DNA of 62,586 nt, counting the filler, from Pseudomonadota bacterium (lineage in GTDB: Bacteria; Bdellovibrionota_F; JAHFAK01; JBDREC01): NCBI GenBank assembly GCA_043820105.1. It is 8 parts of 8 records of this genome, joined end to end, with 100 filler letters (N's around TTAATTAATTAA, not from the genome) between each part and the next. Parts side by side here need not be neighbours in the genome. Positions count along the whole stretch, not along the records: positions 26,369 to 49,437 come from JBDREC010000043.1; 7 more parts are not named here. One strand, 5' to 3'. Each line of letters starts with the position of its first letter. Position 1 is the first letter of the stretch. The translations under genes and the position numbers were made by a program. A model generated the notes under the pieces. The model was given only the letters and a program-made list of their open reading frames with translations, was not told the origin of the DNA and made no database searches. Positions 4,175 through 62,586 of the stretch are shown here, piece after piece.

Positions 4175-4274
4175 NNNNNNNNNNNNNNNNNNNNNNNNNN
4201 NNNNNNNNNNNNNNNNNNTTAATTAATTAANNNNNNNNNNNNNNNNNNNNNNNNNNNNNNNNNNNNNNNNNNNN

Positions 4275-4323: not shown

Positions 4324-6822
4324 TTAATCTTCTTTTAATACTTTAAGCTCTTCTTCAGTTCTCTCTCTTAGATGTAAAGAACCTGAAAAGCACTTTAATG
4401 CACATATTCCACAACCAATGCATTTTGTTGCATCAGTAACTGGGATTTTGTCGTCATTTAATTCAATAGCTAAATATGGACAGCGAGAGCAGTTTCCGCA
4501 ATGTTCACAAAGTTCATCATTGACCTGTGAAATCTTTTTAACAGGTGATAGCTCCATAAAACCAGTAATCGGGCCGTTTTCTTTTTTTGAAATATTTATT
4601 AATTCAGCAATTGAATTGATTCCTCTTGTAGCCATTAAATAGGAAAGGCCTGATGAGATTTCATCAATTACTCCATAGCCATATTTTGTTGGTAAGGTGC
4701 AGAACTGAACATTCTTAACCCCAAGAGATAAGAAGTTCGCAGCTGCTTTATAGTCCATTGGTCCGCCATTTCCTGATATCGCTACTCCAAGATTTTGAAC
4801 AGATGCTAAGGATAAATAGGAAATTGGTAAAACTCCTTCTCCTGACATTCCAAATAAAATGCCTTCATCCCATGATTTTTTTGTACCAGGTCTAAAATCC
4901 ATTACAGGAAAAGTGTTGGCTAAAGTTATTCCTGCTTTTTTGTTTGGATATCTATCAAAAACTTCTTTTATTGCTTTAACAATAACAGCAATTGAAGTAA
5001 CAGCGCCAGTTAGTTTGAAAAATTTAGGAACTTCTGGGTCAGATACTTCCATAACCCAATCAACAATTTTTTGGGTTAGGGCCGCATTTTGTGAAACAAT
5101 GTCACCTTCTGTTCCATCACCACCCTGAGGGCAAGATAATGAATATTCAATTCCCATTGCTCCTGCTTCTTCTAATCTTTTTGTATTTCCCTGCCACCCA
5201 GCTTTATCCGATTCATCGTTTCCTGTAACTGGTCCGCCTGTAGATCCCATTGTCAATCTATCTGGATATTCTTTAACTAACATTTGGATTTCTTCTGTAA
5301 CTCTATTTAACAGGTGACCTGAAACATTGTCACAGTTTCCATAAGTCTTTTCATCAAATACATGCATGTATCTTTCTGGAATATGAATTGGGCCAGCTGA
5401 AAAACTTGTTTTCATGATTCCACCAGCCCAGCCAGCTTCATAGGCTTTTTTCATTTGTTCATAGCCGTCTGAAGGAGGGGCAGCTGAAAGTAAAAACGGA
5501 GAAATAATTTTTCTGCCAAAGAAATCTGTTTCTAATGAAACAGGTAATTTATTGAAACCAACTAATTCAGCATTTGATCTTTTGTGATCTTTAATTTCAG
5601 GCTTATCAAGTCCTTTTAAAAATGCTTCAACTTGCATTCCAGCATTTTTACCACTAGCTACTGCTTCAACCACTGTAGCTGGGCCTGTGAACATATCACC
5701 CGCGTAAAAAAGGCCTGGTTTTTCTTGCTTTGAAAATTCAGACCTGTTTCCAATGGCCATAATTATATAATCAAAATCAATTCTTGAAATCTCTGTTCCG
5801 GATTTTTCAATAATATTTTCTAAGGCAAATGTTGTTCCTTCTTTGAGGCCGACTTTAACTGTTTTTATGGCTGCTACCTTGCCTTCAGCTGAAATAATTT
5901 CTTTTATTTTGGTTCTTTGATTAAGTTCAATATTAAATTCCAAAAGTTCTGCTCTTTCAGCATTTGTTAGCGGCATTTCAGCGTAGCTTTCAAGAAAGAA
6001 AAGCTCTACGTTTTTAGCCCCAAGACGTTTTGCTTCTGTTGCGCAATCAATTGCAATAGCTCCACCACCGTAAACTGCAACATTGCCAGAGACACTTGGT
6101 TTTTTTGTTAAAAAGGCATTTCCATAAAATGCTTCAGCTTCTCCTGGCACTCCTGGTTTTATTGGAACATGTAGGCCACAAGAATTTATGACAGCATCAT
6201 ATTCTGATAGCAGGGAATCTTCATTTTCAACATTTGCTGCATTTTTAATATTGAAACCATCTATTGATTTCCAAAAATTAATATCTGAGTTTAAGACTTC
6301 TTTATCAAGTCTATGATCAGGAATAAGCCAGCAAGCACCACCTGCTTTTTCATTCTTTTCATATACATCTACAGTGAAGCCTTTTTGGACTAAGTAAGTA
6401 GCAGCTCCAAGTCCTGCTGGGCCTGCTCCAATTACAGCAACTTTTTTATCAAGCTTTTGGGCTTGCTTGAATTCTGGCATTACTCCTAGCTCTTTTGCTT
6501 TTTGAACTATCGTTGCTTGCACTGCTGGAATATTAACTGAACAGTCAAAATCTTTTCTAGAACATCCTGACATGCAGTGTGTATCTGGACAAGTTTGACC
6601 ACAAATTCCCCCAAGTGGATTGTTTTTATAAATTAAACCTGCAGCTCGCTTGTAATCAGAGGGATTACCCATTTTAGCGGCCATGATAAATTCAAATGGT
6701 GAACAGTCAACAGGACACTTTTCCTGACAACCCTTTTCCTTGCAGTATTCACATTTTATGATTTCAGTTTTTAGTTGGGCATCTGTTAAAAAGAGGCCTT
6801 TTTTGTTGAGTTTACTTTCCAT
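4324..6822 (-). CDS. Dihydropyrimidine dehydrogenase, single-chain PreT-PreA fusion
   Basis: N-terminal Fe-S region (CEYC..CQEKCP), GAGPAG FAD site, GGGAIAID, DHOD-like barrel with LSCPQ, C-terminal 2x[4Fe-4S] (CEHCGNC, CIGCGIC). Confidence 0.85.
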   Translation of the reverse strand: MESKLNKKGLFLTDAQLKTEIIKCEYCKEKGCQEKCPVDCSPFEFIMAAKMGNPSDYKRAAGLIYKNNPLGGICGQTCPDTHCMSGCSRKDFDCSVNIPAVQATIVQKAKELGVMPEFKQAQKLDKKVAVIGAGPAGLGAATYLVQKGFTVDVYEKNEKAGGACWLIPDHRLDKEVLNSDINFWKSIDGFNIKNAANVENEDSLLSEYDAVINSCGLHVPIKPGVPGEAEAFYGNAFLTKKPSVSGNVAVYGGGAIAIDCATEAKRLGAKNVELFFLESYAEMPLTNAERAELLEFNIELNQRTKIKEIISAEGKVAAIKTVKVGLKEGTTFALENIIEKSGTEISRIDFDYIIMAIGNRSEFSKQEKPGLFYAGDMFTGPATVVEAVASGKNAGMQVEAFLKGLDKPEIKDHKRSNAELVGFNKLPVSLETDFFGRKIISPFLLSAAPPSDGYEQMKKAYEAGWAGGIMKTSFSAGPIHIPERYMHVFDEKTYGNCDNVSGHLLNRVTEEIQMLVKEYPDRLTMGSTGGPVTGNDESDKAGWQGNTKRLEEAGAMGIEYSLSCPQGGDGTEGDIVSQNAALTQKIVDWVMEVSDPEVPKFFKLTGAVTSIAVIVKAIKEVFDRYPNKKAGITLANTFPVMDFRPGTKKSWDEGILFGMSGEGVLPISYLSLASVQNLGVAISGNGGPMDYKAAANFLSLGVKNVQFCTLPTKYGYGVIDEISSGLSYLMATRGINSIAELINISKKENGPITGFMELSPVKKISQVNDELCEHCGNCSRCPYLAIELNDDKIPVTDATKCIGCGICALKCFSGSLHLRERTEEELKVLKED

Positions 6823-6835
6823 TTAGACTCCTTGT

Positions 6836-6905
6836 TAAGGTGGTAAGCTGTAAGTGGTAAGCTGTAAGAGTTAGTACAGCGTACAGAGTACAGCGTACGG
6901 CGTAT
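6836..6905. repeat. Two adjacent heptamer arrays (GTAAG[TG/CT] and GTACAG[C/A]) directly upstream of the preTA RBS
   Basis: tggtaag-ctgtaag-tggtaag-ctgtaag then gtacagc-gtacaga-gtacagc-gtacggc-gta. Confidence 0.85.
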
Positions 6906-9054: not shown

Positions 9055-9564
9055 ATGTCTAATGAATTTGATCAATTACTAGAGAATAAAAATTTAACAG
9101 AAAGCAGCGAGAATGTTTTAACCCATCATAGCGAGGATTCCAATGGTTTTGTTTTGAAAGTAAAGGGGCATGTAATTAAATCAGTTGAAGAACTTCCGAT
9201 TTGTCCAATAATAAGAGAAGTTGTTAATTCAAGTTATGAAATTTCAAGACGAGCAACTTTTGTGAAAGATTCAATTTTGGTTGAAGACGTTCGCAGGACT
9301 TCTATAAAAATGCCCGGATCCCTGGTTTCAGGTTTTGATATGGGTGCAAAACTAGTCTTAGTAGATCATTTGATTAAGGTAAAGGGGTATTGCGGAGAGC
9401 TTAAAGCTTATTACACACTCGCCTTGGATCAAAGATATATTGATGACGAAATGTATATTGATATGCTAGAAAAATGTAAAAAGATTACTTTGTTTGCTGA
9501 TAAAATGATTCTTTGTCTAAAGGGTAATAAAATTAAGCAGATGATGACTAAGAAGTTAGGGTGA
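9055..9564 (+). CDS. Divergent four-helix-bundle (23S rRNA IVS-like) protein with N-terminal extension
   Basis: IKSVEEL...FVKDSILVEDVRRTS...SGFD...KGYCGEL...ALDQRYI follows the family pattern in degenerate form. Confidence 0.65.
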   Translation: MSNEFDQLLENKNLTESSENVLTHHSEDSNGFVLKVKGHVIKSVEELPICPIIREVVNSSYEISRRATFVKDSILVEDVRRTSIKMPGSLVSGFDMGAKLVLVDHLIKVKGYCGELKAYYTLALDQRYIDDEMYIDMLEKCKKITLFADKMILCLKGNKIKQMMTKKLG

Positions 9565-10550: not shown

Positions 10551-11452
10551 TTGGCTGAAGCTCTGAGTAATCGGGGGGGGGGGGGGGGGGGNNNNNNNNN
10601 NNNNNNNNNNNNNNNNNNNNNNNNNNNNNNNNNNNTTAATTAATTAANNNNNNNNNNNNNNNNNNNNNNNNNNNNNNNNNNNNNNNNNNNNCAATAAATA
10701 TAAGAGAAAATACTTAAAGCAAAGATTAAATGGATTGTCTGAAAGTTCGAGCATCTTAACGGCGTCAAGGATGATATCAACTGATTTGTGGGGTATATTT
10801 AAGTATGTGAATAAACAATAAGCTTTAACCCAGTAGGCATAAATTTTTATTATAATCTTTTAAAATTATAAGTTCTGCTGGATTTTCCAGTGATGTATCC
10901 ATCTGCTCTGTATTATAGATTGTGATAATCTAGTGCCATTTATACACATTGGAAGGCAATTATCCAAATAATAATTTAAACAGGCTGATTTTTAAATGGC
11001 TAAAAAATATTAAAATAAGACCCATTTAAAAGCTATGTTTCAGATAGACAGATGAAGCTTAAAGCTTATATTGTTTTTGATGAACTGTTATATAATTTAG
11101 AAAAGAGAAAATAATTATTATGTGTACAGGTATCCAATTATGATTGATCGCTCGAGGCAAAGTAAAAAAACGTTATTCTGCCTAGTTGTATACTATTATT
11201 TGTTGACTTTGCTTTTCATAGACAATTCTTGGTCAAATGCAAATAGAGAAAAATAATTTAATAATAGGAAAAAAGATAAAAATAATATGATATAACGATG
11301 AATGTTTTTTTTCACAATGTAAACCCCAGTTTAAAGAAGATACGCTAAAGTCGAAAATATTCATAGAACATCTAATGCGATAGGTCAAATAATTTGTGAC
11401 CCATCTTTAACACTTGGGGAATAAGCACAATAATATTAGGTGGTTAGAAAGA

Positions 11453-13005: not shown

Positions 13006-14227
13006 CTAGTGTCATGTCAAGCGTCTAATGTCGGATAAAGGCGAGCTAATTTTATCCTAGCGTTATCAGAAGTAAATTGCCAGTTTACTTTTGCATTTTT
13101 ATTATTTCTAACTTCTTGCCATGCTTTAACCTCTTTTTTTACAAGCTCAATATCATCAAGCCTTCTTTTTAGGCACTGCCCAGGGAGTACATTCAATTCA
13201 ATTTCTGCCATATTCAACCAACTGCCATGCTTAGGTGTGTATATAAATTCGAACCTATCCCAAAGTTTCTTTGCTTTTTCAGGATTAAATGTTTCGTAAA
13301 ATGCCCCAGGATCATGTGTATTTAGATTGTCCATAACCAATGTTATTTTTTTTGAATCTTCATATCGATCACTAATATCTTCTAAAAAATGTGCCCAGTC
13401 TTTTTTTGTTTTTCTTTCGGTGATCGATACCATTCTTTTTCCCGCCAATGGCTCACAAGCAAGGAATATATTACAAACACCACAACGCCTATATTCGTAA
13501 TCATATTTTGCAGATTGCCCAGCTGATGCTGCAATCGGAGCCTTTGTTTCAGCAATAAGTTGCTTCGGTGATTCATCCATACATACAACAGGAAAGTCTT
13601 GGTTATAAGAACGCTTGTAAACGTCCAATACCATTTCCATCCTTGCAACAAAACTGCCATTTTCTTTTGGCGGAATCACCCAACCTTTTTTTTGCCAGGG
13701 TTTAATTTCGTTTTTTTTAATATATTACGAATCGATTCATGGGAAATATTATCAATGTATTCAAGTTCAACAACTTTGTCTGCCAATAGTCGTAACGACC
13801 ATCTTGCAAAACCTTCCGGCGGTTCGCTGCAACTCAATGCAACTAAATGGGCTTCAAAATCGCCATCTGCTTTTTTTGAATAAACTCGACTGCCCTTATT
13901 TCCATTTAAAGCGACATCAATGCTCTTTTCTACAAAACGCCTCTTAACTCGATCGATCCTTTTCATGCTTATATTTAGAACTCGGGAAATTTCTTTATTT
14001 AACGACCGTTCGTCTTGAAATTCTCCTTCATCGCATCCAAGTAAAATCAACGCATTGATTACTTTCTGCGATCTATGTTGGCCTCGAGTGGTCAGTGATT
14101 CCAAGGTTTCTCGTTCCTCTTCCGTTAAGGTTATAATATATTTCTTCACGATCAATCCTCCTTGTGTTGATTATGAAGAAATTAGTATCACATTTTATGC
14201 GACATTGCAAGCTTGACATGACACTAG
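13006..14227 (-). mobile_element. Complete IS630-family element
   Basis: Perfect inverted ends CTAGTGTCATGTCAAGC (13006) / GCTTGACATGACACTAG (14227); HTH and DDE ORFs inside. Confidence 0.93.
13017..14155 (-). CDS. IS630 transposase, two ORFs (13676..14155 HTH, 13017..13679 DDE) joined by a probable -1 frameshift
   Basis: A8 run at 13711-13718 gives LKKNEIKPWQKKGWVIPP; VCMDE, VMDNLNTH and SWLNMAEIE DDE motifs. Confidence 0.9.
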
Positions 14228-18816: not shown

Positions 18817-18916
18817 NNNNNNNNNNNNNNNNNNNNNNNNNNNNNNNNNNNNNNNNNNNNTTAATTAATTAANNNNNNNNNNNNNNNNNNNNNNNNNNNN
18901 NNNNNNNNNNNNNNNN

Positions 18917-23311: not shown

Positions 23312-23535
23312 NNNNNNNNNNNNNNNNNNNNNNNNNNNNNNNNNNNNNNNNNNNNTTAATTAATTAANNNNNNNNNNNNNNNNNNNNNNNNNNNNNNNNN
23401 NNNNNNNNNNNATAATATAAATAAATAATTGAAATAAATTTATTTTAGGTATTAACAATTTATTCCAAAACTGGGCAATAAAAGTAAAAGCAAAGCATAA
23501 AATGTATGAAGTAATTTTCTCAAATTGTGATACCT

Positions 23536-26039: not shown

Positions 26040-26369
26040 GGCCCCTCCTTAAAATAAGTTACTTTTTTATTATAACATAAAAAATAAAAAATAAAAAATA
26101 AAAAATAAAAATAGATAAAAAAGATCACTGCAATTCAGACACTATATTTTTAATAATTTAGGCCGGCATCCAATTGATGGTATTATAAACATGATCAATG
26201 GAGTATCTTTGCTGCAAGTAATTTTTAGTACATTATTTTCTTGTTGAATTAAAGGTGGTGGGTATACCNNNNNNNNNNNNNNNNNNNNNNNNNNNNNNNN
26301 NNNNNNNNNNNNTTAATTAATTAANNNNNNNNNNNNNNNNNNNNNNNNNNNNNNNNNNNNNNNNNNNNT

Positions 26370-31332: not shown

Positions 31333-34299
31333 ATGAACTTTAAACTTAAACAGTTATTAACATTATCTTCATTATTAATTGTTGCGATATGTTGGATTGT
31401 AGCTTCAATTAATATCTATTTTTATACTAAATCATTAATTTTAAAGAGTTATAAAAATCATCATGTTGAAAAAACAAAAAATTTACATTCAGTATTAAAG
31501 AATGATATAATAACCGGAAACTATATAAAAGTTAAAATTCAATTAGAGCTATTCGTAAGGCAAACAAATGCAGATATTGCTATTGTATTTGATAAAAATG
31601 AAGTTATCTTAGAATCAGCCACTAAAGATATCTCATTAAATATTTCAACTTTTAACAATAATTTCAGTAATTCAAATCTTAATGAGAATGAAGTAATAGA
31701 ATATGCCTTCTTGAAACATAAGTCTGAAAACATTTTTATATGTTCTTCTCCAATTTTATTTCAAGGGCTGAAAGGCGATTACTTTGGAAAGTTATATATT
31801 GTTTATAATACTAAAGCATTAAATACTCAATTGATAAATTTGATTGTTTTTTTCGCTAGTGTTGTGATTATAGCACTTATTTGCCAATTTTTTATAATTA
31901 ATCTGGTTGCCAATAAAATAATAAACTCAATTTTGTCATTAATATATTCTATAAAAAAATCTGATAATAAGGGGTATTTAACTCCTGTTAAAATTGACAC
32001 GGATATTTTAGAATTAAAAGAACTCTCAATAGAGTATAATAAAATGGTAAAAAAGGTAAGAGAAGCTCACAAGACAATAAAAAACATTACTGCACTTGCT
32101 GCTATTGGTCAAACAACCTCAATGCTTGCTCATGACGTACGCAAACCTTTCACCAGCATGAAATCCATTCTTTCTATGATCGATAAAATTAAGGATAATC
32201 CTAGCTCTTTAAAAAAAGCAAAAAAAACAGTTAATGAAACGATCGCTCATGTTGAGAGCATGATATCTGATATTTTAAATTTTTCTAGAGAAGTAAAAGT
32301 CGAAGTAAATCCAGAGGGAGCTTCTGGTCTAATTGATTTCTCTGTTAGACAAGCTGTCCAAGGACACAAGAATATTTCAGTTGATTTTGAATATGATTTA
32401 AAAAATGATTTGAAACCACTTGTAGATGATGAAAGAATGGCTAGAGTTTTCGTTAATATCATTGGAAATGGCATTGAAGCTCTGAAAAGCCATCAGCCTT
32501 CAGCTATCAGCATTCACCTGGAAAATTCAAGGAGTACTACAAGCTACAAGCCACAAGCTACAAGCTTAATTTGGCTTAAAACTAGAAACTTTATGAAAGA
32601 TGAAAAGGAATTTGTTGAAATAATAATTGGCAATAATGGTCCTAAAATAGCAGAAGAGGATCTAAAAAATTTATTCGAATCATTTTTTACCAAAGGCAAG
32701 AAAGCTGGTACAGGTTTAGGTTTAGCATCAGCACATAAGATTGTTACATTACATGGTGGAACTATTGAGGCAAGGAATGTTGTAGAGAACAAGAGAACAA
32801 GAGCACAGGAGAACAAGAGCGCTAGAGCACCAGAGCACCGGTGCACCAGTATGACAGACACTGAATACCAAACACTGAATACCGAATACAAATCCGGAGT
32901 AGAGTTTGTAATTACAATCCCTGCTTCAAATGAAATTGATAAACATAATTTGGGTATTCTTCCAAAAAACACAGATGAAATACTTTTTGTTGAATATGAA
33001 CCCTTGCAAGAAGACACGGACGAAAAACTAAGTTTTTTATTGAAACAAGAAAAAATAAAAGTAGTTTTATTAGAAGATGAAACGCTTTATAGAGCCTTTG
33101 TTAGAAACACTATTGAAAGCAATGAGGTTCTAAATAAAATAATTACCTTATATGATGCAGATAAAGTTGATGAATGTATAGATCTAGTAAAAAAAGAGTC
33201 CATTGGTTTTGCAATTGTAGATATAGACTTAAATGAAGAAAAAAATGGATATGATTTTCTTAAAGAAATTAAGGATCAGAAAATAAAACTTAATTCAATT
33301 GTTCATTCTAACCGGTATTTAGATGAGGAAATTCAGCATGCATACGACTTGGGTGCTAAATCATATGCGAGCAAACCTTTTTCAACTGAACAGCTTGTAG
33401 ATTTTCTCTATATTAATTTGGGTGGTAAGGTTAAGGAATCCAGAAGGGATAATCAAGACGATCAGGTGCCTAATGATCTTGCTAAAAAGAGCAAGGAAGG
33501 CAAAAAACTAATATGTTTTGTTATTGATGATAACTTTATTACTAGAGAAAATATTGCTATGATGCTGAAAGAACCTTTAGAAGGTTATAATTATGAAATT
33601 AAAAAATATGAGTCGCCATTTGATGCTGAAAAAGAATTTGATGAAATAAAACCAGATCTTGTTATTAGCGATAACCACTTAGGTTGTGATGATGAAATTC
33701 TTGGAGAGGATCTATTAAAGAAATTTCGCGATAAGGAAGATAAGGTTTTATTATATCTTTGTTCTGATGCTGTTGAGGAGTCTTTAAAAGAAAAGGCAAA
33801 GAAGAGTAAAGCAAATGGCTTTTTTCCACCAAATGTAACAAAAGAAGAGTTTAACAATATTATATTATCAGACTTAGAAAAATACTTGAATAAAATAAAA
33901 TCAGCTGACTCAATAACTCGTGAAGAGAAAAAAGCTTTATCAAAATACTTCCATGACATTAATAAACCGATTTTAAATGCATCAATTGTTTTTAAATTGT
34001 TTATAAATTCAAAAGAGGAAGTTTCTATTGAAGAAAAGAATAAACAACTAGAGGCTTTAAAAAATGCATATTCTACATATTCTAAAGTATATGAAAATAG
34101 CAGCAACTTATTTGTTGACTACAAGAACCTTATACATGTAGGGATAAAAGATAATTATTCAAAACAATTTATATTTATGAAAACGCTTCTTGAGTTAGAT
34201 TTATTAGAAGTATTTACTGAGGCTAATTTAAACAGTATAAATGAATTTTCAAAGATGAATAGGGAATATGGGAAAGAAGTTAGAAAAGCTTTATCATAG
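31333..34299 (+). CDS. Membrane hybrid histidine kinase (sensor-HAMP-HisKA-HATPase-REC-REC plus C-terminal H-box-like helix)
   Basis: 2 TM; AHDVRKP H-box; NIIGNG, NNGP, FFTKG, GTGLGL; LLEDE..VDID; VIDDN..ISDNHL; C-terminal HDINKP. Confidence 0.9.
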   Translation: MNFKLKQLLTLSSLLIVAICWIVASINIYFYTKSLILKSYKNHHVEKTKNLHSVLKNDIITGNYIKVKIQLELFVRQTNADIAIVFDKNEVILESATKDISLNISTFNNNFSNSNLNENEVIEYAFLKHKSENIFICSSPILFQGLKGDYFGKLYIVYNTKALNTQLINLIVFFASVVIIALICQFFIINLVANKIINSILSLIYSIKKSDNKGYLTPVKIDTDILELKELSIEYNKMVKKVREAHKTIKNITALAAIGQTTSMLAHDVRKPFTSMKSILSMIDKIKDNPSSLKKAKKTVNETIAHVESMISDILNFSREVKVEVNPEGASGLIDFSVRQAVQGHKNISVDFEYDLKNDLKPLVDDERMARVFVNIIGNGIEALKSHQPSAISIHLENSRSTTSYKPQATSLIWLKTRNFMKDEKEFVEIIIGNNGPKIAEEDLKNLFESFFTKGKKAGTGLGLASAHKIVTLHGGTIEARNVVENKRTRAQENKSARAPEHRCTSMTDTEYQTLNTEYKSGVEFVITIPASNEIDKHNLGILPKNTDEILFVEYEPLQEDTDEKLSFLLKQEKIKVVLLEDETLYRAFVRNTIESNEVLNKIITLYDADKVDECIDLVKKESIGFAIVDIDLNEEKNGYDFLKEIKDQKIKLNSIVHSNRYLDEEIQHAYDLGAKSYASKPFSTEQLVDFLYINLGGKVKESRRDNQDDQVPNDLAKKSKEGKKLICFVIDDNFITRENIAMMLKEPLEGYNYEIKKYESPFDAEKEFDEIKPDLVISDNHLGCDDEILGEDLLKKFRDKEDKVLLYLCSDAVEESLKEKAKKSKANGFFPPNVTKEEFNNIILSDLEKYLNKIKSADSITREEKKALSKYFHDINKPILNASIVFKLFINSKEEVSIEEKNKQLEALKNAYSTYSKVYENSSNLFVDYKNLIHVGIKDNYSKQFIFMKTLLELDLLEVFTEANLNSINEFSKMNREYGKEVRKALS

Positions 34300-34327
34300 G
34301 TTTTAGACATGGTTGAAAGGAGAGTTT

Positions 34328-35371
<1,044 letters not shown>

Positions 35372-35429
35372 TAATTTGAAGGTTGTGTAGAAAAATTAGC
35401 AAATAATTAGCAAAAAAAATATCCAAATA

Positions 35430-35464
35430 AAAAGGACTTGCCAATAATCTTAGCAAGTCCTTTA
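35430..35464. terminator. Hairpin at the tRNA 3' side
   Basis: AAAGGACTTGC-caataatctta-GCAAGTCCTTT. Confidence 0.7.
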
Positions 35465-35473
35465 ATGTCAATA

Positions 35474-35557
35474 TGCCGAGGGCCGGAATCGAACCGGCAC
35501 GCCCTTGCGGACGCGGGATTTTGAATCCCGTGCGTCTACCAATTTCACCACCCCGGC
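35474..35557 (-). tRNA. tRNA-Leu(CAA)
   Basis: GCCGGGG acceptor stem, TGGTAGAC D-arm, CGGGA-TTCAAAA-TCCCG anticodon arm, long variable arm, GGTTCGATTCC T-arm; CCA not encoded. Confidence 0.95.
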
Positions 35558-35560
35558 TAG

Positions 35561-35716
35561 GGGAAATTACAAATAACAAATTCCAAATTACAAAAAAGGA
35601 GAATAAATTCACCCTTATTATGGGAAATTACAAATAACAAATTCCAAATTACAAAAAAGGAGAATAAATTCACCCTTATTATGGGAAATTACAAATAACA
35701 AATTCCAAATTACAAA
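35561..35716. repeat. 61-bp tandem repeat (about 2.5 copies) carrying an AAATTAC-type heptamer array
   Basis: Unit gggaaattacaaataacaaattccaaattacaaaaaaggagaataaattcacccttattat starts at 35561, 35622 and 35683. Confidence 0.9.
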
Positions 35717-35739
35717 TAAAAATTCGATGAATCAAGAAA

Positions 35740-36099
35740 TTATTCGGATTTTTTTATTATTGATGAAAGAATATTTCTTAGTTCTTTTGATTCTGTTATA
35801 AATTCATCAGCATCACCTGAATAATTTTGATTTGCTTCTTTTAAAAGTTCCAGCCAATATGTGCTTTCTTTGCATTCTTTCCTAGAGATTTTCATTCTGT
35901 ATAAAAAATCTTTCTTGCTAATAGCATCATTAGCTTCTCTATAATTGGCACCAACTGATCCAGATGCATTTACAAGTTGACCTATTAACTTGATGTTGAT
36001 CGTGCTATTAGGAATTTTCTTGCATAAACGAATAATTCCCTTTGCATACTCTAATGTTCTTTCCTCTAGGTCGTATGGCTTAATATTTTTTGATACCAT
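35740..36099 (-). CDS. Four-helix-bundle protein (TIGR02436-like)
   Basis: YDLEERT..QLVNASGSVGANYREANDAISKKDF..ISRKECKESTYWL; likely start MVSKN at 36099. Confidence 0.9.
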   Translation of the reverse strand: MVSKNIKPYDLEERTLEYAKGIIRLCKKIPNSTINIKLIGQLVNASGSVGANYREANDAISKKDFLYRMKISRKECKESTYWLELLKEANQNYSGDADEFITESKELRNILSSIIKKSE

Positions 36100-36148
36100 T
36101 GTAATTTGTGTATTATTTGTCATTTGTTATTTGAAATTTGTGATTTTC
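36098..36148. repeat. Heptamer array inverted relative to 35561-35716
   Basis: atttgtc-atttgtt-atttgaa-atttgtg-att. Confidence 0.8.
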
Positions 36149-36150
36149 TC

Positions 36151-37467
36151 CTACTCCTCGTAATATTCCATCCCAAGATGCGTAATAAGCTCTTCACCCA
36201 TTACATATCTCATAGTATTTTTAAGCTTTGTCATTTGAATGAATAAATCATGTTCTGGATACAGGCCTTCAGCGTGTTGAGGGCTTTTCCAGTAAAATGA
36301 AAGCCATTCTTGAATGCCCTTCATTCCTGCTCTTTTTGCAAAGTCAGTGAGTAAAACTAAATCAAGAACTAAGGGAGCTGCTAAGATTGAATCTTTACAT
36401 AGGAAATCAATCTTGATTTGCATGTTATGATTTAGCCATCCAAAGATATCAATATTATCCCAACCTTCTTTATTATCGCCTCTTGGAGGATAGTAATTAA
36501 TTCTTACTTTATGATAATAATTTCCATAAAGATCTGGATAATTATGTGGTTCTAAAATTTGATCAAGAACTGATAATTTTGAAACTTCTTTTGTTTTAAA
36601 AGCATCAGGATCATCAAGGACTTCACCATCTCTGTTACCTAAGATGTTTGTTGAAAACCATCCGTTTAGTCCTAGCATTCTTGCTTTTAAGCCAGGTGCT
36701 ATGATTGTTTTCAGTAAAGTTTGGCCTGTTTTGAAATCTTTTCCGCCAACTGGAACTTGATTTTTATTTGCAAGTTCTAGTAAAGCAGGAGTATCAACTG
36801 TTAAATTGGGGGCTCCATTTAGATAAGGAATGCCTAATTTTAAAGCAGCATAAGCATAAATCATGCTAGGGCTGATTGCTGGATCACTTTCAGCTAAGCC
36901 CTTTTCAAAACTTTCAAGACTTGAGTGAACTGCTGATTTCTCAATGTAAACTTCTGTTGATCCACACCAAATCATAACAAATCTAGAAATGTTTTTTTCT
37001 TTTTTTACATTTTCAATATCTTGCATTAGCTGCTCTGCAAGTTCCATTTTATTCTTGCCTTCTTTTATCCATGTTCCATTTAGATTTTTAACATATTTGT
37101 GATCAAAAACAGCTTTCATTGGTTTAATGCAATCTATTTCTTCTTTTACTGATTCAATAATTGATGGTTGAATAACATGATTTTTCTTTGCTGTTTCATA
37201 AACTGAATCTTCGAAAATATCCCAACCTGCAAACTCAATATCACTTAAGTTTGCTAAAGGTAAAAAATCTTTTATAAGAGGGGTATTTTTATCTGTTCTT
37301 TTGCCAAGTCTAATTGTTCCCATTTGTGTAAGTGAGCCAATTGGCTTTCCAATGCCTTTTTGAATTGCCTTACAACCAATAATAAAAGTAGTACTAACAG
37401 CACCAAGGCCTGGTATTAAAACACCAAGTTTTCCTTCAGCTTTTTCAACGTTGAATTTTTTTTCCAT
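36151..37467 (-). CDS. ino1: Myo-inositol-1-phosphate synthase
   Basis: GLGAVSTT, WCGSTE, NGAPN, GKDFKTGQT, STNILGNRDG, CKDSILAAPL. Confidence 0.93.
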   Translation of the reverse strand: MEKKFNVEKAEGKLGVLIPGLGAVSTTFIIGCKAIQKGIGKPIGSLTQMGTIRLGKRTDKNTPLIKDFLPLANLSDIEFAGWDIFEDSVYETAKKNHVIQPSIIESVKEEIDCIKPMKAVFDHKYVKNLNGTWIKEGKNKMELAEQLMQDIENVKKEKNISRFVMIWCGSTEVYIEKSAVHSSLESFEKGLAESDPAISPSMIYAYAALKLGIPYLNGAPNLTVDTPALLELANKNQVPVGGKDFKTGQTLLKTIIAPGLKARMLGLNGWFSTNILGNRDGEVLDDPDAFKTKEVSKLSVLDQILEPHNYPDLYGNYYHKVRINYYPPRGDNKEGWDNIDIFGWLNHNMQIKIDFLCKDSILAAPLVLDLVLLTDFAKRAGMKGIQEWLSFYWKSPQHAEGLYPEHDLFIQMTKLKNTMRYVMGEELITHLGMEYYEE

Positions 37468-37494: not shown

Positions 37495-37556
37495 TGATGA
37501 GTTGTGAGTTGTGAGTTATTTTTAAGCTTACAGCTTACAGCTTATAACTTATAGCT
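37495..37556. repeat. Inverted heptamer arrays upstream of ino1
   Basis: tgagttg-tgagttg-tgagtta ... agcttac-agcttac-agcttat-aacttat-agc. Confidence 0.85.
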
Positions 37557-37707
37557 TTTTTAATAAGGATTAGTTGACTATAATAATCAAAATCTAAAAT
37601 CAAGATAAATTGGATACGTTTTTCAATAATTAATATAAATATGTTGATTAACAAATTTTCCTTTACTATAATTTATAAAATTTCAAAATAAAATTGAGGT
37701 ATTTCAA

Positions 37708-44350: not shown

Positions 44351-45451
44351 ATGGATGAAAATATTTCCTTTAGTTTTCAAAATTTTGCTCATTTAAAAAA
44401 CCTATCATTAAATGATCTTGAGGCTATTCGTCTAATTTTAAGAGGTGGTTCTGTTGTTGATTGGCGCAGGTTGAATTTTGATAGTAGAAATGAAATTGAT
44501 AATTTTTTATCTATTAATGGATATAATATTAATAATCCAAAAGATACAGATAGACTTTATACATTGCATAGAAAGGCCTTGAATTACATTGAGGAAAATT
44601 TTCAATATAATATGCCTGGAAAAGTGAGTAATATTGATTCTGTTTATGATTTGTTTGAAATGGCCTCAGACTGGAAAAATTTTAATAGAGATCAGGTTCT
44701 TTCCTGTGTTGTGCTTAAGGTAATGAATATTATTAATCATCTTGAAGGTCGTGAACTTTTATATACCCTTCCAATTAGTTTTAGGAGTTTTTCTCATATT
44801 GTTACTGAAAGAGTAATATCTAGAATTAATGAACTCAAACAGCATCATTGTCCAATTGTTGAAATATCTGGTGGAGAGAAAACCAAAAATTCACTTATTA
44901 CTAAATTGCTTTTAAAAAAAGATACTATTGCTGCAACCGTTTTTGATCGCTTGAGATTTAGACTTGTTGTAGAAAAAAAATCAAACATTATCCCAATGCT
45001 TTACCATCTGACCAGAGAGCTTTTTCCTTTTAATTACATAATTCCAGGTGAATCTCAAAATGATTTGATTGATTATATAGAATTTTTACAAGGTGATTCT
45101 TATGCACAAAAGTATATTAAAGATCTTCAAGTAAATATTGGTTTAGAAGAGGAATCTAAAGTTATCAGACTTAAAGAAATTATGAAAAAGAATCCTTTTT
45201 CAGCAAAAAATTTTAGAACAATGAATTTTGTCTTTGATTTGCCAATAAAAATTTTAGATTACTTTCCTGAGTTTGAAGATCGTCTTGATGAAGAAACCGG
45301 ATATTTGGTCTTTGCTCTGGCTGAAATACAGCTTATTGATGCAAAAACTTCAGATGAAAATGAAAGAGGAGAGGCAAACCATGATAAATATTCTGAGAGG
45401 AAATTAGAAAAAGCATGGAATAGGCTTGTTAAAGGAACTAAGGAAATATGA
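44351..45451 (+). CDS. TIGR04552-like conserved protein
   Basis: LRGGSVVDWRRL, LKVMNIINHLEGREL, KTKNSLITKLL, FPFNYIIPGESQN, ENERGEANH. Confidence 0.8.
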   Translation: MDENISFSFQNFAHLKNLSLNDLEAIRLILRGGSVVDWRRLNFDSRNEIDNFLSINGYNINNPKDTDRLYTLHRKALNYIEENFQYNMPGKVSNIDSVYDLFEMASDWKNFNRDQVLSCVVLKVMNIINHLEGRELLYTLPISFRSFSHIVTERVISRINELKQHHCPIVEISGGEKTKNSLITKLLLKKDTIAATVFDRLRFRLVVEKKSNIIPMLYHLTRELFPFNYIIPGESQNDLIDYIEFLQGDSYAQKYIKDLQVNIGLEEESKVIRLKEIMKKNPFSAKNFRTMNFVFDLPIKILDYFPEFEDRLDEETGYLVFALAEIQLIDAKTSDENERGEANHDKYSERKLEKAWNRLVKGTKEI

Positions 45452-45526
45452 TTGGTATTCGGTATTTAGTATTTAGTATTCGGTAAAAGATTAAAGACAT
45501 TATCTTTCTTGCGCTCTTGTCCTCTT
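45452..45526. repeat. GTATT[CT][AG] heptamer array plus octamer remnant between convergent genes
   Basis: ggtattc-ggtattt-agtattt-agtattc-ggta; cttgcgct-cttgtcct. Confidence 0.8.
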
Positions 45527-46511: not shown

Positions 46512-47750
46512 TTACTGCCTAGTCCATAATTTTAGGAGCTCCACAAGAGCCAGGAAATTGGTTTCCATCCATTCGACACAGCAGAACTCATCTCTCATAT
46601 GTCCATTTGCTCCACCGCAGGAAATATCAGGGCATGGCAAACCCATTAAGGTTAAATCTGAGCCGTCTAAACCACCCCTGGAAAGGCGTTTTTTTGCCTT
46701 AACTCCAACTTTATCAAAAGCCTCATATGCAAGCTCATAAACCAGTGGGGTTTTATCAAGGTATTCTTTCATGTTTCGATATTGTTCTTTAATATCTAGT
46801 ACAATTTTTGTTTTTGGAAACATTTCCTTAACTTCTGCATATATTGAGTTAAGAATTTCTTCTTTTTCTTTTAATTTGGAATAATCATGGTCTCTTACAA
46901 GTACTTTTAATTTCGTTGTTTCTACTCCACCTTCAATTTCATATGGGTGTAAATATCCTGTTCTATCATCGGTCATTTCAGGTGAGATTTCATATGGGAT
47001 TTTATTGATGATTTCATTAACAACTCTTATAGAGTTCATCATTTTGCCTTTTGCTTGGCCTGGATGAGTATTTATTCCTTCAACTGTAAATTTTGCTAAA
47101 GAAGCGTTAAAAGTTTCATCGCAAATTTCAGCGACAGCATGACCATCAAGAGTATAAGCAAAGTCACATCCAAAAGCCTTAACATCAAAAAATTCAACTC
47201 CACGGCTAACTTCTTCATCAAGGGTAAATGCAATTTTCATTGTTCCATGTTTTATTTCAGGATTGCTTATAAGATATTCAGCCAAAGTAACAATCATCGC
47301 TATTCCTGCTTTATCATCAGCGCCTAATAGTGTTGAACCATCAGATGTAATAATGGTTTTGCCAACAAGTTCTTTTAGAATAGGGGAGTTATCAACAGTT
47401 AAGTTTAGACCATTGCCCTTTGGCAGGATAATATCATTTCCATCATAGTTTGCATGGATTATTGGATTAACATTTTTCCCAGGCGTTTCAGGAGAAGTGT
47501 CTACATGAGCCAAAAAGCCAATAACAGGCAGATTTTCTTTTTCACAATTAGCTGGTATTTCACCTGTTAAATAGCCATAATTATCAATTTTTACATTACT
47601 AAGGCCAATTTCCTCAAGTTCAGGTTTTAATATCTTTTGAAATGCAAGCTGACAATCAGTTGAAGGATATTTTTCGACACCTTCTTTTGAAGTTGTATCT
47701 ATTTTAACGTATCTTGTGAGTCGTTCAATTAGTTTTGCTCTTATATCCAT
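46512..47750 (-). CDS. pepT: Peptidase T
   Basis: GFLAHVDTSP, LLGADDKAG, FTLDEE, ETFNA, RGGLDG; likely start MDIRAK after AGGAG RBS. Confidence 0.92.
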   Translation of the reverse strand: MDIRAKLIERLTRYVKIDTTSKEGVEKYPSTDCQLAFQKILKPELEEIGLSNVKIDNYGYLTGEIPANCEKENLPVIGFLAHVDTSPETPGKNVNPIIHANYDGNDIILPKGNGLNLTVDNSPILKELVGKTIITSDGSTLLGADDKAGIAMIVTLAEYLISNPEIKHGTMKIAFTLDEEVSRGVEFFDVKAFGCDFAYTLDGHAVAEICDETFNASLAKFTVEGINTHPGQAKGKMMNSIRVVNEIINKIPYEISPEMTDDRTGYLHPYEIEGGVETTKLKVLVRDHDYSKLKEKEEILNSIYAEVKEMFPKTKIVLDIKEQYRNMKEYLDKTPLVYELAYEAFDKVGVKAKKRLSRGGLDGSDLTLMGLPCPDISCGGANGHMRDEFCCVEWMETNFLALVELLKLWTRQ

Positions 47751-47764
47751 TGTTACTCCTTGTT

Positions 47765-47796
47765 TAAGTGGTAAGTGGTATGTGGTAAGTGGTAAG
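47765..47796. repeat. TAAGTGG heptamer array directly upstream of the pepT RBS
   Basis: taagtgg-taagtgg-tatgtgg-taagtgg-taag; same family as 6836 and 46395. Confidence 0.85.
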
Positions 47797-48077
47797 ATAA
47801 AGAAAAAGGTTTGTCCAATGGAAAAATATTGTTTGGAAATTAAATTGGCCAATTGATTATTGAAAATATTACTTTTTGTGATTTTTTTTTTTCAGATGTG
47901 CATTTTTAGAATAATCAATAATTAACAATCAATTTTCAATTTTCAATTTTTTAAGAGGTGGGAAGAAGATAACCCATGAAATTTAGGAAAAAGAATAGAT
48001 TTTTTGCACTTGAACATAAAAAAACATAAACCTATTCATAAGCAATTGTTTTAATAGGCTAATCTGAGAATCTTGTT

Positions 48078-49080: not shown

Positions 49081-49537
49081 AATAAAAAACATATTGTTTA
49101 AAGCATTGACAATTTTGATTAAAGTGAAAATATCAGTGCATGACTATCCTTTATTTAATTCTATCAATGCTTGGCTTTGGTCTAACAACAGCCATAACTA
49201 AAATTCCTTCAAAAAAAATTGGAACCATAAAAACGATTTGTATAAGAAATCTTTTTATTATACCTAAATTAGGCGATTTTATTTTGGCTGCATAATAAAT
49301 AGGCATAAAAGTTAAAAAAAGATGTTAATCGATGAGAATTTTTCATTAGAGCAATAATTATTCAAAAGCCGGCAATCAATTTTTTAAACTTTCCCTGAAA
49401 ATTTAAAAAAGCGTTAATTTTAGGTGCACCTTTCCTANNNNNNNNNNNNNNNNNNNNNNNNNNNNNNNNNNNNNNNNNNNNTTAATTAATTAANNNNNNN
49501 NNNNNNNNNNNNNNNNNNNNNNNNNNNNNNNNNNNNN

Positions 49538-60390: not shown

Positions 60391-60490
60391 NNNNNNNNNN
60401 NNNNNNNNNNNNNNNNNNNNNNNNNNNNNNNNNNTTAATTAATTAANNNNNNNNNNNNNNNNNNNNNNNNNNNNNNNNNNNNNNNNNNNN

Positions 60491-62586
60491 ATTATCTTTA
60501 TTAAAAAGAATGCTTGGATTTTCATGTGATAAAAGATCTGAGATGTAATCTAGTTGTGCCTCATAGTGCTTTTTAATATCATCATTCAGGATTTCATCAT
60601 ATTCTGTAAACAAGGCTTTGTTTTCTTCATAGACTTCTTTATATCTTTTATAAGTTTTATCTATTTCATTTAACTTTTTGTAGATATCAGGATCTTTTAT
60701 TGTGTCTTTTTCTTTTAAAAGTAATTTGCAGCTTAAAGCAGTGTTAAGAATTGGTTTGTTTATGTCATGCATGTATTTTGATATAGTCTCTCTTCCCTGT
60801 TTTGATATTGACCGGGATCTTTTCTTGAAGTAGTTTTGAATATCTTTCAAAATCACCTGCTCAAGATCTGTTTTATTGATGTCTGGTGAAAAAGAGCCTG
60901 TTGCCTTGCATTTTGAAGCTTTTTCTAAAAGACTTTCTGAATCCGTATCTGAGCTAAGATATAATAAAGTTTTGTCATTTTTTTCTCTTAATAGTTTTAG
61001 TAAGTCTTCACCCAGCATGCTTTCAGGTTCTAGGTGATTGTCACTGATAACTATATCAGGCTTTTTGAGACTAAATTCCTTTAAAGCCTCATTTGGAGAG
61101 GTATATAGAGAAATTGAATAGGAATAGTCTATTAAGATTTCTTCAAGCAAAGACTGAATATAATTTCCTGTAATGAAATTATCATCAACAATAAAAATGA
61201 TCAGTTCTTCCTTCTTGCTCTTAGGTTTCTTTATATGCTGCCTGCCTTTTTCAAAACCGGCTTTATTTAAACCTTCATATATAAAGTCAATGAGCTGATC
61301 AGTTGAAAGTGGTTTGCTTGCATAAGCTTTTGCTCCAAGATCATAGGCATGCTGAATTTCTTCATCTAGATAACGGTTTGAATGAACCAAGCAGCTTAGC
61401 TTAAGTTTCTGCTTTTTAACTTCCTCAAGAAAATCATAACCATTTTTATCTTCATTTAAATCAATATCAACAATAGCAAATTCAATATTTTCTTTTTTAA
61501 CAAGTTCTATACACTCATCAACTTTGTCAGCATCATACAGTATTAGTAGTTTTGAAAGAGTTTCATTTGTTTCAATGGCGTTTCTTACGAAAGCTCTGTA
61601 AAGAGTTTCATCTTCTAATAATACAACTTTAATTTTAGCATGTGTAGATAGAAAATTTAACTTTTTATCAAGATATTCTTCATTAGGTTCATATTTAACA
61701 AAAAGGATTTCATCAGAGTTTTTAGGCAAGATGTTAATGTTATGCTTTTCTTTTTCAACTGAAGCTGGGATGGTGATTACGAATTCAACACCAGTTTTGT
61801 ATTCAGTATTCGGTGTTTGGTATTCTGTATTTGATTGGTTTACATTTTCTGCTGTATCCATGTTCTCTTGTTCCCTTGTTCCCTTGTTCTCTTCACAATT
61901 CCTTGCCTCTATGGTTCCCTCATGCAAAGTAACAATCTTATTAGCTGATGCAAGCCCAAGTCCAGTTCCAGATTTCTTACCTTTTGTGAAAAATGATTCA
62001 AAAAGGTTTGGGATATCGTCCTCTTTGAAATGTGGACCATTGTTACCAATTACAATTTCAACAAAGCCTTTTTCATCTTTAAATACATCTTTAGTTTTCA
62101 ACCAGATTAAGCTTGTAGCTTGAAGGTGGTGGCTTGTAGGGTTCCCTGTTATTTCTTGCTGATTGCTGAAAGCTAAAGTCTGATAGCTTTTCAAAGCTTC
62201 AATCCCATTCCCAATAATGTTAGCAAAAACTCTTGCCATTCGTTCATCATCTAAAAGGGCTTTATATTTATTATTGAGTTCATATTCAAAGTTTATTGTT
62301 ACATCTTTATATGTTTGTATTGCTTGCCTAATTGAAAAATCAAGCAAGCTTGCAATTGCCTCAGGCTTTGTTTCAAGTTTCACTTCTCTTGAAAAATCAA
62401 GAATATCAGAAATCATCTTTTCAACATGGATTATAGTCTGATCAACAGTGATTTTAGCTTTTTCAAGTGCTTTTGGGTCTTTTTTAAACTTGTCTAGCAT
62501 ATTCAGAAGAGATTTCATGCTTGTAAAGGGCTTGCGAACATCGTGAGCTAACATTTGTGTAGTTTGGCCAATTGCTGCGAGTTTGG
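60491..62586 (-). CDS. Hybrid histidine kinase, paralogue of 31333..34299 (partial at both ends)
   Basis: LAAIGQTTQMLAHDVRKPF; same HATPase-REC-REC-HDINKP layout; frame open beyond the window end. Confidence 0.9.

Follow-up and report, generated by a model that had tools for sequence, protein, structure and literature searches.

Why is a small gene, lodged between a myo-inositol-1-phosphate synthase gene and a tRNA gene, enclosed by tandem seven-nucleotide repeats that run in opposite orientation on its two sides? The locus lies in a stretch of 62,586 nucleotides, hereafter the window, from the draft genome of a Pseudomonadota bacterium (GCA_043820105.1; Bdellovibrionota_F in GTDB), and the gene encodes a four-helix-bundle (4HB) protein of the S23p/Avd-like family. 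Open reading frame (ORF)-bearing intervening sequences (IVS) of ribosomal RNA (rRNA) have been known for three decades, and we know of no explanation to date for the role of the IVS protein or for the way in which IVS spread. An original prediction, made from the DNA alone, took the gene and its arrays for a mobile or excisable unit resembling an IVS. In this study, the idea of an rRNA-IVS-like element that lives in operons and is defined by heptamer-array arms is partly supported. Across phyla the gene keeps its arms; the cassette occupies short spacers, often within operons, with host genes of the same orientation on both sides; and the two arms covary, with ORF-less copies bearing near-identical arms in some genomes. 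We read the locus as one copy of a widespread, promoter-less, IVS-type cassette of ~0.5 kb, whose arms are terminal inverted repeats able to enclose the ORF in a stem, and put the probability of this reading at roughly 55%.

A Four-Helix-Bundle Gene between Inverted Heptamer Arrays

The locus is carried by the piece 26369–49437 of the window, whose overall GC content is 31.6%. On the minus strand the order is ino1, 5′ array, 4HB ORF, 3′ array (three times), tRNA-Leu(CAA) and a terminator-like hairpin:

36151–37467, minus strand: ino1, myo-inositol-1-phosphate synthase (PF07994, 6.7e-98; PF01658, 2.4e-31)
36102–36150, minus strand: 5′ arm (period 7 in Tandem Repeats Finder, TRF; 3 pattern matches; aligns to the family-wide 5′ arm, columns 42–117 of alignment A2, described below)
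35740–36101, or to 36123 from the first ATG, minus strand: 4HB ORF, stop TAA 35740–35742 (PF05635, TIGR02436)
35680–35739 (array 35686–35722, plus strand), minus strand: proximal 3′ arm, reverse complement of the 5′ arm (inverted repeats I1, I2, I7)
35561–35716, no strand assigned: 61-nt tandem repeat, 2.6 copies, 100% identical (TRF score 312; family D1)
35474–35557, minus strand: tRNA-Leu(CAA) (ARAGORN; Rfam RF00005, 52.5 bits)
35431–35463, minus strand: terminator-like hairpin of 14 pairs with a T tail, 3′ of tRNA-Leu (consensus scan; inverted repeat I25)

Both directly adjoining host genes, ino1 upstream and tRNA-Leu(CAA) downstream, are co-oriented with the cassette, and the ino1 stop codon (TAG, 36151–36153) abuts the 5′ arm. 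Because the consensus scan finds no promoter-like site on the minus strand between ino1 and tRNA-Leu, and a terminator-like hairpin after the tRNA, ino1, the cassette and tRNA-Leu may form one transcription unit, such promoter and terminator calls being consensus matches and no proof of function. An Rfam gathering search of the whole window found no rRNA, its sole match being tRNA-Leu.

That inverted AAATNNC arrays bracket the ORF was part of the original prediction, and it proved correct. The pattern AAATNNCAAATNNCAAATNNC (AAATNNC three times, at most one mismatch) has 10 matches in the 62,586-base window, every one at the cassette locus, seven on the plus strand within 35564–35720 and three on the minus strand within 36112–36146; 0.08 are expected, with a largest count of 1 in 100 shuffles. 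TRF delimits period-7 arrays at 35564–35594, 35625–35655, 35686–35717 and 36115–36146, all head-to-tail, with 4.4–4.6 copies and 80–84% matches. Read on the sense strand, the arm units are CAAATNN upstream and NNATTTG downstream. The 5′ arm is an A/C-rich quasi-heptamer array on the minus strand (AAATCAC AAATTTC AAATAAC AAATGAC AAATAAT ..AAATTAC), and the array 36105–36146 leads straight into ATG 36099, so that tandem heptamers stand directly upstream of the start, as in IVS; no Shine-Dalgarno motif is visible ahead of this ATG.

On the other side of the ORF there is not a single array but a 61-nt unit repeated 2.6 times, and the 3′ arm is therefore present three times: there are two further copies (arrays 35564–35597 and 35625–35658), with 27 nt of non-array sequence after each. 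The register of the 61-nt unit extends 9 nt into the 5′ end of tRNA-Leu (35549–35609 and 35610–35670 are 92% identical; family D1), and given this overlap the tRNA border may have been involved in the triplication. The longest inverted pair (I1) matches 35686–35720 with 36105–36139, 35 nt at 80% complementarity and 384 nt apart. As RNA, the duplex of the 5′ arm with the proximal 3′ arm has an energy of −22.7 kcal/mol, where shuffled sequences give −10.7 ± 3.1 (none of 200 as low); as DNA it has −19.4 kcal/mol, and each of the two extra 3′ arms pairs with the 5′ arm at −22.0 kcal/mol. In silico, the minimum free energy fold of a 603-nt stretch has the arms close the ORF on either strand, at −124.7 kcal/mol (z −2.2) on the minus and −120.0 kcal/mol (z −4.2) on the plus strand.

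The Protein and Its Homologues

The assignment of the ORF to the rRNA-IVS protein family is borne out by PF05635 (2e-16, 60.5 bits, cut-off 33.8) and TIGR02436 (1.6e-23, 83 bits, cut-off 24). The ORF encodes 119 amino acids (aa) from ATG 36099, or 127 aa from an ATG at 36123 that falls within the array. To judge from the homologues, which are mostly 115–120 aa long and cover 88% of the query, the second ATG is probably the true start. An AlphaFold2 model (alignment A1) has helices at 19–35, 41–65, 70–97 and 99–126 with a mean pLDDT of 90. Its best Foldseek matches are 2RLD (TM score 0.74–0.89), 2GSC (0.73–0.85), 4DWL and 8UB7; phmmer matches 2rld_A at 3.2e-14. The nearest solved structures are thus the stand-alone S23p proteins 2RLD and 2GSC, with five chains per entry, followed by Avd, the accessory protein of a diversity-generating retroelement (DGR). 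A Xanthomonas homologue, Xcc0516, is described as a homopentameric toroid in the accessible part of PMC4990558. No recognisable transposase family was found by Pfam in the 119-aa protein. A possible link of the 4HB family to HEPN domains was dropped, since no HEPN family appears in Pfam at E ≤ 10 and the literature search gave no paper that mentions the two together.

A word-indexed protein search returned 1859 relatives at E ≤ 1e-3 among 1866 candidates; among the 120 matches listed, identity is 62–79% and length mostly 115–120 aa. Seventeen homologue sequences were inspected, 14 of at least 132 aa and three of 116–119 aa. Thirteen of the 14 long ones bear N-terminal extensions (e.g. ..QITNKLQ.. 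or NHNIQYTNHKQYTNYN), with a weak trace only in P0038. Judged by their sequence, these extensions are translated heptamer arrays, and they were the first sign of such arrays in other genomes. A second, weaker 4HB-like ORF of 169 aa lies in the window at 9055–9564 (PF05635 28 bits, below the 33.8 cut-off; TIGR02436 18 bits).

Recurrence of Gene and Arms across Phyla

A scan of a genome collection with an alignment of 36 relatives gave 595 candidate stretches, 591 of which were confirmed as encoding a relative; the best 80 (L001–L080) were kept. They come from Patescibacteria, Desulfobacterales, Bacteroidota, Chloroflexota, Gammaproteobacteria, Omnitrophota, Planctomycetota and other groups; the source genome of the window is absent from them, the best match being 70% identical. 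With the window added, 76 of 81 loci had both flanks of at least 120 nt and entered the flank tests. The best 28-nt window reached a lag-7 match of 0.66 upstream and 0.64 downstream, compared with 0.40 in 380 control windows from the same loci and 0.43–0.51 at other lags. Inverted symmetry was scored by local alignment of the upstream flank against the reverse-complemented downstream flank within 140 nt. Cognate flanks scored 36.9, non-cognate flanks 27.9, shuffled flanks 18.6 and the direct orientation 19.5, while random window pairs 400 nt apart scored 15.8 with a maximum of 23. In 64/76 loci the cognate score exceeds this random maximum; the proposal that ORF and inverted arrays form a recurrent unit is thereby upheld, in many phyla and unrelated gene contexts. 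RNAduplex energies follow the same order, with −54.3 kcal/mol for cognate arms in sense, −51.2 in antisense, −43.9 for non-cognate arms (12 sampled partners per locus) and −36.7 for shuffled ones; in 26/76 loci none of the 12 sampled partners pairs as strongly as the cognate arm.

Some loci depart from the simple plan. A short GC-rich palindrome is nested in the A/T-rich 3′ arm of L021 (4391–4430), L023 (4400–4450) and L018 (~4440–4470), as if a second small element had landed there. Two 4HB genes lie within a few kb of each other in L003 (4001–4336 and 4848–5315), L053 and L078; L003 has a second PF05635 ORF, its first copy carrying an in-frame TAG early in the conserved region, and L053 and L078 have two tblastn matches each. 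Two weak, partial matches in phage records, unannotated and from human faecal samples, were not used.

The arms can be aligned column by column. Alignment A2 comprises the window and 51 of 72 eligible loci, 52 cassettes in all; 21 loci were dropped by eye for a mis-set start, an insert-displaced arm, a one-sided arm, or as a duplicate (L080). The 5′ consensus is TAAATTCCAAAnnnCAAATnACAAATnCCAAACAAATTnCAATGACC and the 3′ consensus its reverse complement, the arms containing about 4–6 heptamer units. A stem of 46 pairs was drawn by hand from this consensus and then counted: 72.5% of cells are paired against 67.7% in shuffles (0/500 as high), double-change cells number 216 against 135.7 ± 9.3, and sliding the stem by one column in either direction lowers pairing to 52.7% and 51.2%. 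The window row itself forms 34/46 of the consensus pairs with its proximal 3′ arm. For instance, pair 76–583 is C-G in 20 sequences and U-A in 20, and where the 5′ arm varies from CAAAT to CGAAAT or CTAAAT, the 3′ arm has the matching ATTTCG or ATTTAG.

Host Transcripts, ORF-less Copies and Plasmid Relatives

The upstream ORF is co-oriented with the 4HB gene in 74/79 loci and the downstream ORF in 63/71 (L051 was excluded, having no stop before the contig end), and the spacer from upstream stop to 4HB ATG has a median of 59.5 nt. On either side lie unrelated housekeeping genes; several loci have the cassette between the two halves of a standard operon:

RuvA/RuvB (L058)
CydA/CydB (L061)
pyruvate:ferredoxin oxidoreductase subunits (L040)
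two ketoacyl synthases, KAS/KAS (L006)
PAPS_reduct/APS-kinase-GTPase (L035)
enoyl-CoA hydratase (ECH)/3-hydroxyacyl-CoA dehydrogenase (3HCDH) (L072)
MnhB/antiporter M (L022)

Among the Pfam families listed (at most five per ORF) for 78 upstream and 70 downstream ORFs there is no transposase, integrase or reverse-transcriptase family, and Rfam found no rRNA in 17 related loci, only a tRNA being matched; in the remaining related loci the neighbours with a Pfam annotation are protein-coding. Two candidate features of the insertion site were rejected: tRNA adjacency as a general target, a tRNA lying within 400 nt in only 2/81 loci, and the upstream TAA stop as a part of the element, 40/68 upstream stops against 183/390 background ORFs being too weak.

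The 5′ arm profile has 221 matches at E ≤ 10 in the loci and the window, 172 of them at the central cassettes. Seven of the 80 loci (L009, L028, L033, L036, L051, L060 and L077) contain, within ±4 kb, ORF-less arm pairs in which a plus arm is followed by a minus arm within ~15–75 nt without a 4HB ORF; these fold at −29 to −54 kcal/mol. In L036 the ORF-less arms are 44/49 and 61/68 identical to those of the ORF-bearing cassette on the same contig; the 3′ arm of L036 itself scores 45, those of the other 72 loci at most 40. Similarly, the ORF-less arms of L028 are 36/42 and 50/58 identical to the ORF-bearing copy (own 3′ arm 40, maximum 30).

Distant relatives extend the pattern to plasmids. A tblastn search against plasmids matched 30 records, all below 60% identity and mostly cyanobacterial; 12 of the 15 listed matches were examined, with hosts in cyanobacteria and two other phyla. 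Eight of the 12, with 4HB proteins 34–41% identical, have inverted-repeat scores of 54–66 (shuffled maxima ≤29) and lag-7 matches of 0.79–1.00 on both sides, and the remaining four are weak (21–25). Since several of the 12 are close relatives of each other, independent plasmid lineages number nearer eight. Their units are lineage specific: GTCGGAG/A; CTTGCGA; AATCGTA with AATCCCC; AGTAAAA; AATTCGT with AATTTGG; and AATTCAA. The cassette architecture is thus deeply conserved with other heptamer units.

The armed distant 4HB genes on cyanobacterial and Chloroflexota plasmids lie inside defence or excision-factor clusters:

L087, L089: cas2/cas1
L091: DISARM helicase DrmD/MmeI-type enzyme
L086, L088: helicase/N6-methylase or hypothetical
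L081, L082, L092: distant 4HB gene beside XisH/XisI

In an earlier survey, 18 genes of the 4HB family were counted within cas loci, one such position being between cmr3 and cmr2 (PMC3936711, accessible text). The presence of armed 4HB genes in plasmid defence clusters may explain the published "CRISPR association" scores for the domain.

A Stem-Enclosed Cassette or an Array of Binding Sites?

How might such a cassette live? Transcripts of the host gene, in this case ino1, would read through into it. Its 5′ arm, poor in G and rich in A and C, could then act as a leader that needs no Shine-Dalgarno site; leaders of such G-poor, CA/A-rich composition can drive Shine-Dalgarno-independent initiation, which would suit an element of many phyla. 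Once the 3′ arm had been made, pairing of the arms would shut the ORF into a long stem rich in A·U pairs, an anatomy like that of ORF-bearing 23S rRNA IVS. By analogy with these IVS, RNase III-type cutting of the stem would free the RNA of the cassette, and the host transcript would suffer less harm. Within a genome, spread would most likely proceed through the arms, by recombination or gene conversion between arm pairs, with ORF-less hairpins as landing pads; such arm-based spread would fit the lack of a transposase and of target-site duplications.

Several results weigh against the stem-enclosed cassette or narrow what may be claimed for it. In 12 of the 76 loci, no inverted repeat within 140 nt scores higher than the random maximum. 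Only 10/76 loci have their cognate arm as the best partner, and 17 have it among the best five, so that much of the complementarity is shared consensus. The sense duplex is only slightly stronger than the antisense one (47/76 loci, p = 0.006). RNAalifold predicts 0 pairs on the 52-cassette alignment, about 28% of the stem cells are unpaired, and the pairing figures from A2 are inflated, because the loci were hand-chosen for visible arms and the structure was drawn from the same data. T·G and G·T cells number 137 and A·C and C·A cells 132 of 2370 over the 46 pairs, 21 sequences leaning each way, and local alignments give 69 G·U-type against 76 A·C-type mismatches. With the two types equal, the arms are kept complementary, and nothing says that sense RNA is the selected level. 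Of the predicted arm pairing, then, the enclosing of the ORF in a computed fold is supported, and pairing in RNA rather than mere DNA symmetry is not. Nor is there a sign of target-site duplication: in the 52 cassettes, with ends taken from the alignment and perhaps imprecise, the longest shared outer-flank k-mer is 3.12 for cognate and 3.04 ± 0.20 for non-cognate flanks. On plasmids L087 and L089 the 4HB gene between cas2 and cas1 runs opposite to its neighbours. The 4HB-like ORF at 9055–9564 is a counter-example within the same genome, its flanks carrying no arrays (lag-7 0.43/0.50; inverted-repeat score 17 against 17.9 in shuffles). Finally, the authors of the Coxiella account consider synthesis of S23p in vivo unlikely, and they report decay of the ORF but retention of the RNA element (PMC4990558, accessible part).

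The alternative that survives best, possible although we consider it clearly less likely, is that the arms are not primarily a stem but arrays of heptamer-spaced binding sites for the cassette's own pentameric, Avd-like ring protein. The sites would act on DNA or single-stranded nucleic acid, in autoregulation or in copying of the element, and the symmetry would reflect two equivalent sites. The strand-symmetric mismatch spectrum is more readily explained by constraint at the DNA level, or on site identity, than by an RNA helix. From lineage to lineage the sequence of the unit varies freely but its period stays at 7, as expected of co-evolving protein–site pairs, and the arms have roughly 4–6 units. 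The fold resembles the five-chain S23p entries and the Avd of DGR ribonucleoproteins (4DWL, 8UB7), and the toroidal Xanthomonas homologue, as far as PMC4990558 could be consulted, agrees. However, sequence-specific nucleic-acid binding by the 4HB family has no support in this analysis, covariation of the arms is equally expected from pairing, ORF-less copies persist, and the Coxiella ORF appears to decay without loss of the RNA element. The two readings are compatible with each other, and binding sites also with mobility.

Far less credible is that ordinary heptanucleotide simple-sequence repeats flank an unrelated small gene by chance and form no unit. Heptamer periodicity is indeed common here, lag-7 values of at least 0.75 occurring in 8/426 non-overlapping 140-nt stretches of the window outside the locus against 1/380 in controls from other genomes, and heptamer repeats are over-represented in many bacteria according to the accessible text of PMC4692102 and PMC4679880. 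Yet within the window AAATNNC arrays, searched on both strands, occur only at this locus (10 against 0.08 expected), and the same gene-plus-arms arrangement, with arms alignable column by column, is found in dozens of genomes, so that chance flanking is contradicted. Contradicted too, and the least probable of all, is a DGR in which the gene would be Avd and the repeats remnants of template and variable regions: PF05635 does cover Avd-like proteins, and Foldseek finds 4DWL and DGR ribonucleoprotein chains (8UB7 and others) at TM scores of 0.66–0.79, but no reverse-transcriptase family occurs among 48 scanned window ORFs or in the Pfam lists (at most five families each) of the 148 ORFs that adjoin the gene in related loci, the repeats are inverted 7-nt arrays and a 61-nt tandem unit rather than a ~100-nt template/variable pair, and the stand-alone S23p proteins 2RLD and 2GSC are closer structural matches.

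Other Repeats and Genes of the Window

Non-autonomous derivatives of the cassette were originally suspected in the window itself; ORF-less arm pairs occur in other genomes, in the seven loci described above. The window's own heptamer hairpins were rejected as derivatives: the arm profile (E ≤ 10) has four matches in the window, all at the cassette locus, so that one copy was found within 62.6 kb and the other hairpins, built of other units, are not recognisable derivatives. These hairpins are:

41–120: units GTATTCA/ATACTGA
789–844: units CAGCCTT/TTGCTGA
6840–6905: units GTAAGCT/GTACAGC
37497–37557: units TGAGTTG/AGCTTAC

The first two stand just upstream of two pilin-like genes (N_methyl motif). 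The last folds at −35.2 kcal/mol on the plus and −12.9 on the minus strand, a difference due to mismatches that on one strand are G·U. Two paralogous hybrid histidine kinases with 59% identity likewise carry arrays, in their HATPase_c region (32488–32566 and 32784–32889; 61799–61893 and 62110–62177). These heptamer/octamer arrays are read in frame (e.g. ..TEYQTLNTEYK..), and since the array-peptide segments are conserved between the paralogues, the insertions predate the duplication. Single unpaired arrays are seen at gene borders: GGTATTC, 4.6 times (45452–45486), directly after the stop of ORF 44351–45451, and CCACTTA-type units (47763–47798, minus strand) directly upstream of AAGGAG and an ATG inside the M20 peptidase ORF 46512–47852. 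A GAATACY unit recurs at 41–120, 32863–32889, 45452–45486 and 61799–61833, and an AGCTTAC-like unit at 6843–6868, 32537–32566, 37525–37557 and 62110–62139, that is, at unlinked places, on both strands, and in coding as well as non-coding DNA.

The closest matches of ino1 in the protein collection are 68–74% identical and come from several phyla, the nearest with a named taxon being from Bdellovibrionota at 72%, which is of no use to an argument on horizontal transfer. Beyond the tRNA and its hairpin, a sigma-54-dependent response regulator (34313–35375) is broken by an in-frame TAA (35147–35149), past which the Sigma54_activat match resumes at profile positions 135–167; it could be a pseudogene, a sequencing error or a case of recoding. 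On another contig, an IS630-like transposase (13017–14155) is split into two overlapping ORFs (DDE_3, 13017–13679; HTH_32/HTH_29, 13676–14155). The window as a whole joins eight contigs of a draft assembly by linkers of the form N44-TTAATTAATTAA-N44, and features across joins are artefacts; a run of 19 G closes one contig (10573–10591). The linkers occupy:

4175–4274
10592–10691
18817–18916
23312–23411
26269–26368
49438–49537
60391–60490

Significance

The evidence connects two subjects so far treated apart, the IVS protein family and the heptamer arrays between bacterial genes: well away from rRNA, within ordinary operons of many phyla, genes of this family are enclosed by such arrays in inverted orientation. 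Our literature search, in which subscription journals were mostly uncovered so that an earlier account is possible, found no description of 4HB genes enclosed family-wide by inverted heptamer arrays outside rRNA. Cassettes split operons (ruvA/ruvB, cydA/cydB, cas2/cas1) and add array-derived N-terminal extensions to gene calls. If this holds genome-wide, it would define a very small, broadly distributed, transcript-resident element, provide a concrete nucleic-acid partner for the 4HB family, and suggest where some of the excess of heptamer repeats in bacteria comes from, in a form open to testing. A broader proposal, speculative and rather unlikely, is that 4HB (S23p/Avd-like) proteins and heptamer-periodic arrays are the two parts of one bacterial system, in which the ring reads, and perhaps copies or expands, arrays in steps of 7 nt. 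ORF-less arrays would then be non-autonomous partners, among them the window hairpins, the GGGAATC pairs of Xanthomonas, TAACTGA of Beggiatoa, and the STRR of cyanobacteria, another dispersed heptanucleotide repeat. Under the same proposal, the bacterial heptamer excess would be the footprint of one transcript-riding family, with rRNA IVS as its first-noticed case.

Comparison with Known Systems

The closest likeness is to the 23S rRNA IVS of Coxiella burnetii (and of Leptospira, as cited in the same source), which also have a PF05635 protein and an ORF within terminal inverted repeats capable of forming a stem. According to the accessible text of PMC4990558, the Coxiella IVS measures 428–444 nt, lies in helix 45 of 23S rRNA, and has a 28-bp terminal stem cut by RNase III. 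Two to three tandem GACAGAT heptamers and a degenerate one, strain-variable in copy number, stand just before the S23p ATG; the 5′ RNase III cut falls at the start of the first of them. The same text notes a poor Shine-Dalgarno site and describes a horizontally acquired selfish element. The present cassette shares the tandem heptamers directly upstream of the start and the poor or absent Shine-Dalgarno site. Unlike the IVS, it lies outside rRNA, flanked by ino1 and tRNA-Leu, and its arms are longer and pair less tightly: the consensus stem has 46 positions and is about 72% paired, where that of the IVS has 28 bp and is near-perfect. Cutting by RNase III is demonstrated for the IVS and, for the cassette, proposed by analogy. 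In bacteria of the candidate phyla radiation, the 4HB domain has been reported from insertions of both 16S and 23S rRNA genes (bioRxiv 10.1101/2024.02.27.582315, in the part available).

With Avd the cassette protein shares the four-helix-bundle fold, and Avd acts within a complex of nucleic acid and protein; identity in the structural alignment is, however, 12%, with neither reverse transcriptase nor template/variable repeats nearby. Strong co-orientation with host transcription, no recognisable transposase and no detected target-site duplication set the cassette apart from miniature inverted-repeat transposable elements and REPINs, which, together with their autonomous parents, it resembles in its terminal inverted repeats, its intergenic position, and short ORF-less copies whose arms are near-identical to those of the ORF-bearing copy in the same genome.

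Dispersed heptamer arrays form a further comparison. They include GGGAATC in Xanthomonas and GGGGA(C/T)T in Nostoc (Rehm et al. 2015, PMC4692102), and TAACTGA in Beggiatoaceae, cyanobacteria and Bacteroidetes (MacGregor 2015, PMC4679880). In the accessible text of these papers the arrays have a scattered phylogenetic distribution, no known mechanism of spread, and proposed roles as G-quadruplexes or as binding sites of translational regulators; convergent (inverted) pairs are frequent in Xanthomonas, with 70–75 cases (PMC4692102). The searched text has no occurrence of "helix bundle" or "intervening sequence" in PMC4679880, nor of "S23" or "xcc0516" in PMC4692102. The window hairpins 41–120, 789–844, 6840–6905 and 37497–37557 fit the description given there. 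The cassette arrays share with them the period of 7 and the intergenic position, mostly between co-oriented ORFs, near an upstream stop or directly before start codons (PMC4692102, PMC4679880, same text). What distinguishes the cassette arrays is that they enclose a conserved gene and that the sequence of their arms is conserved across phyla.

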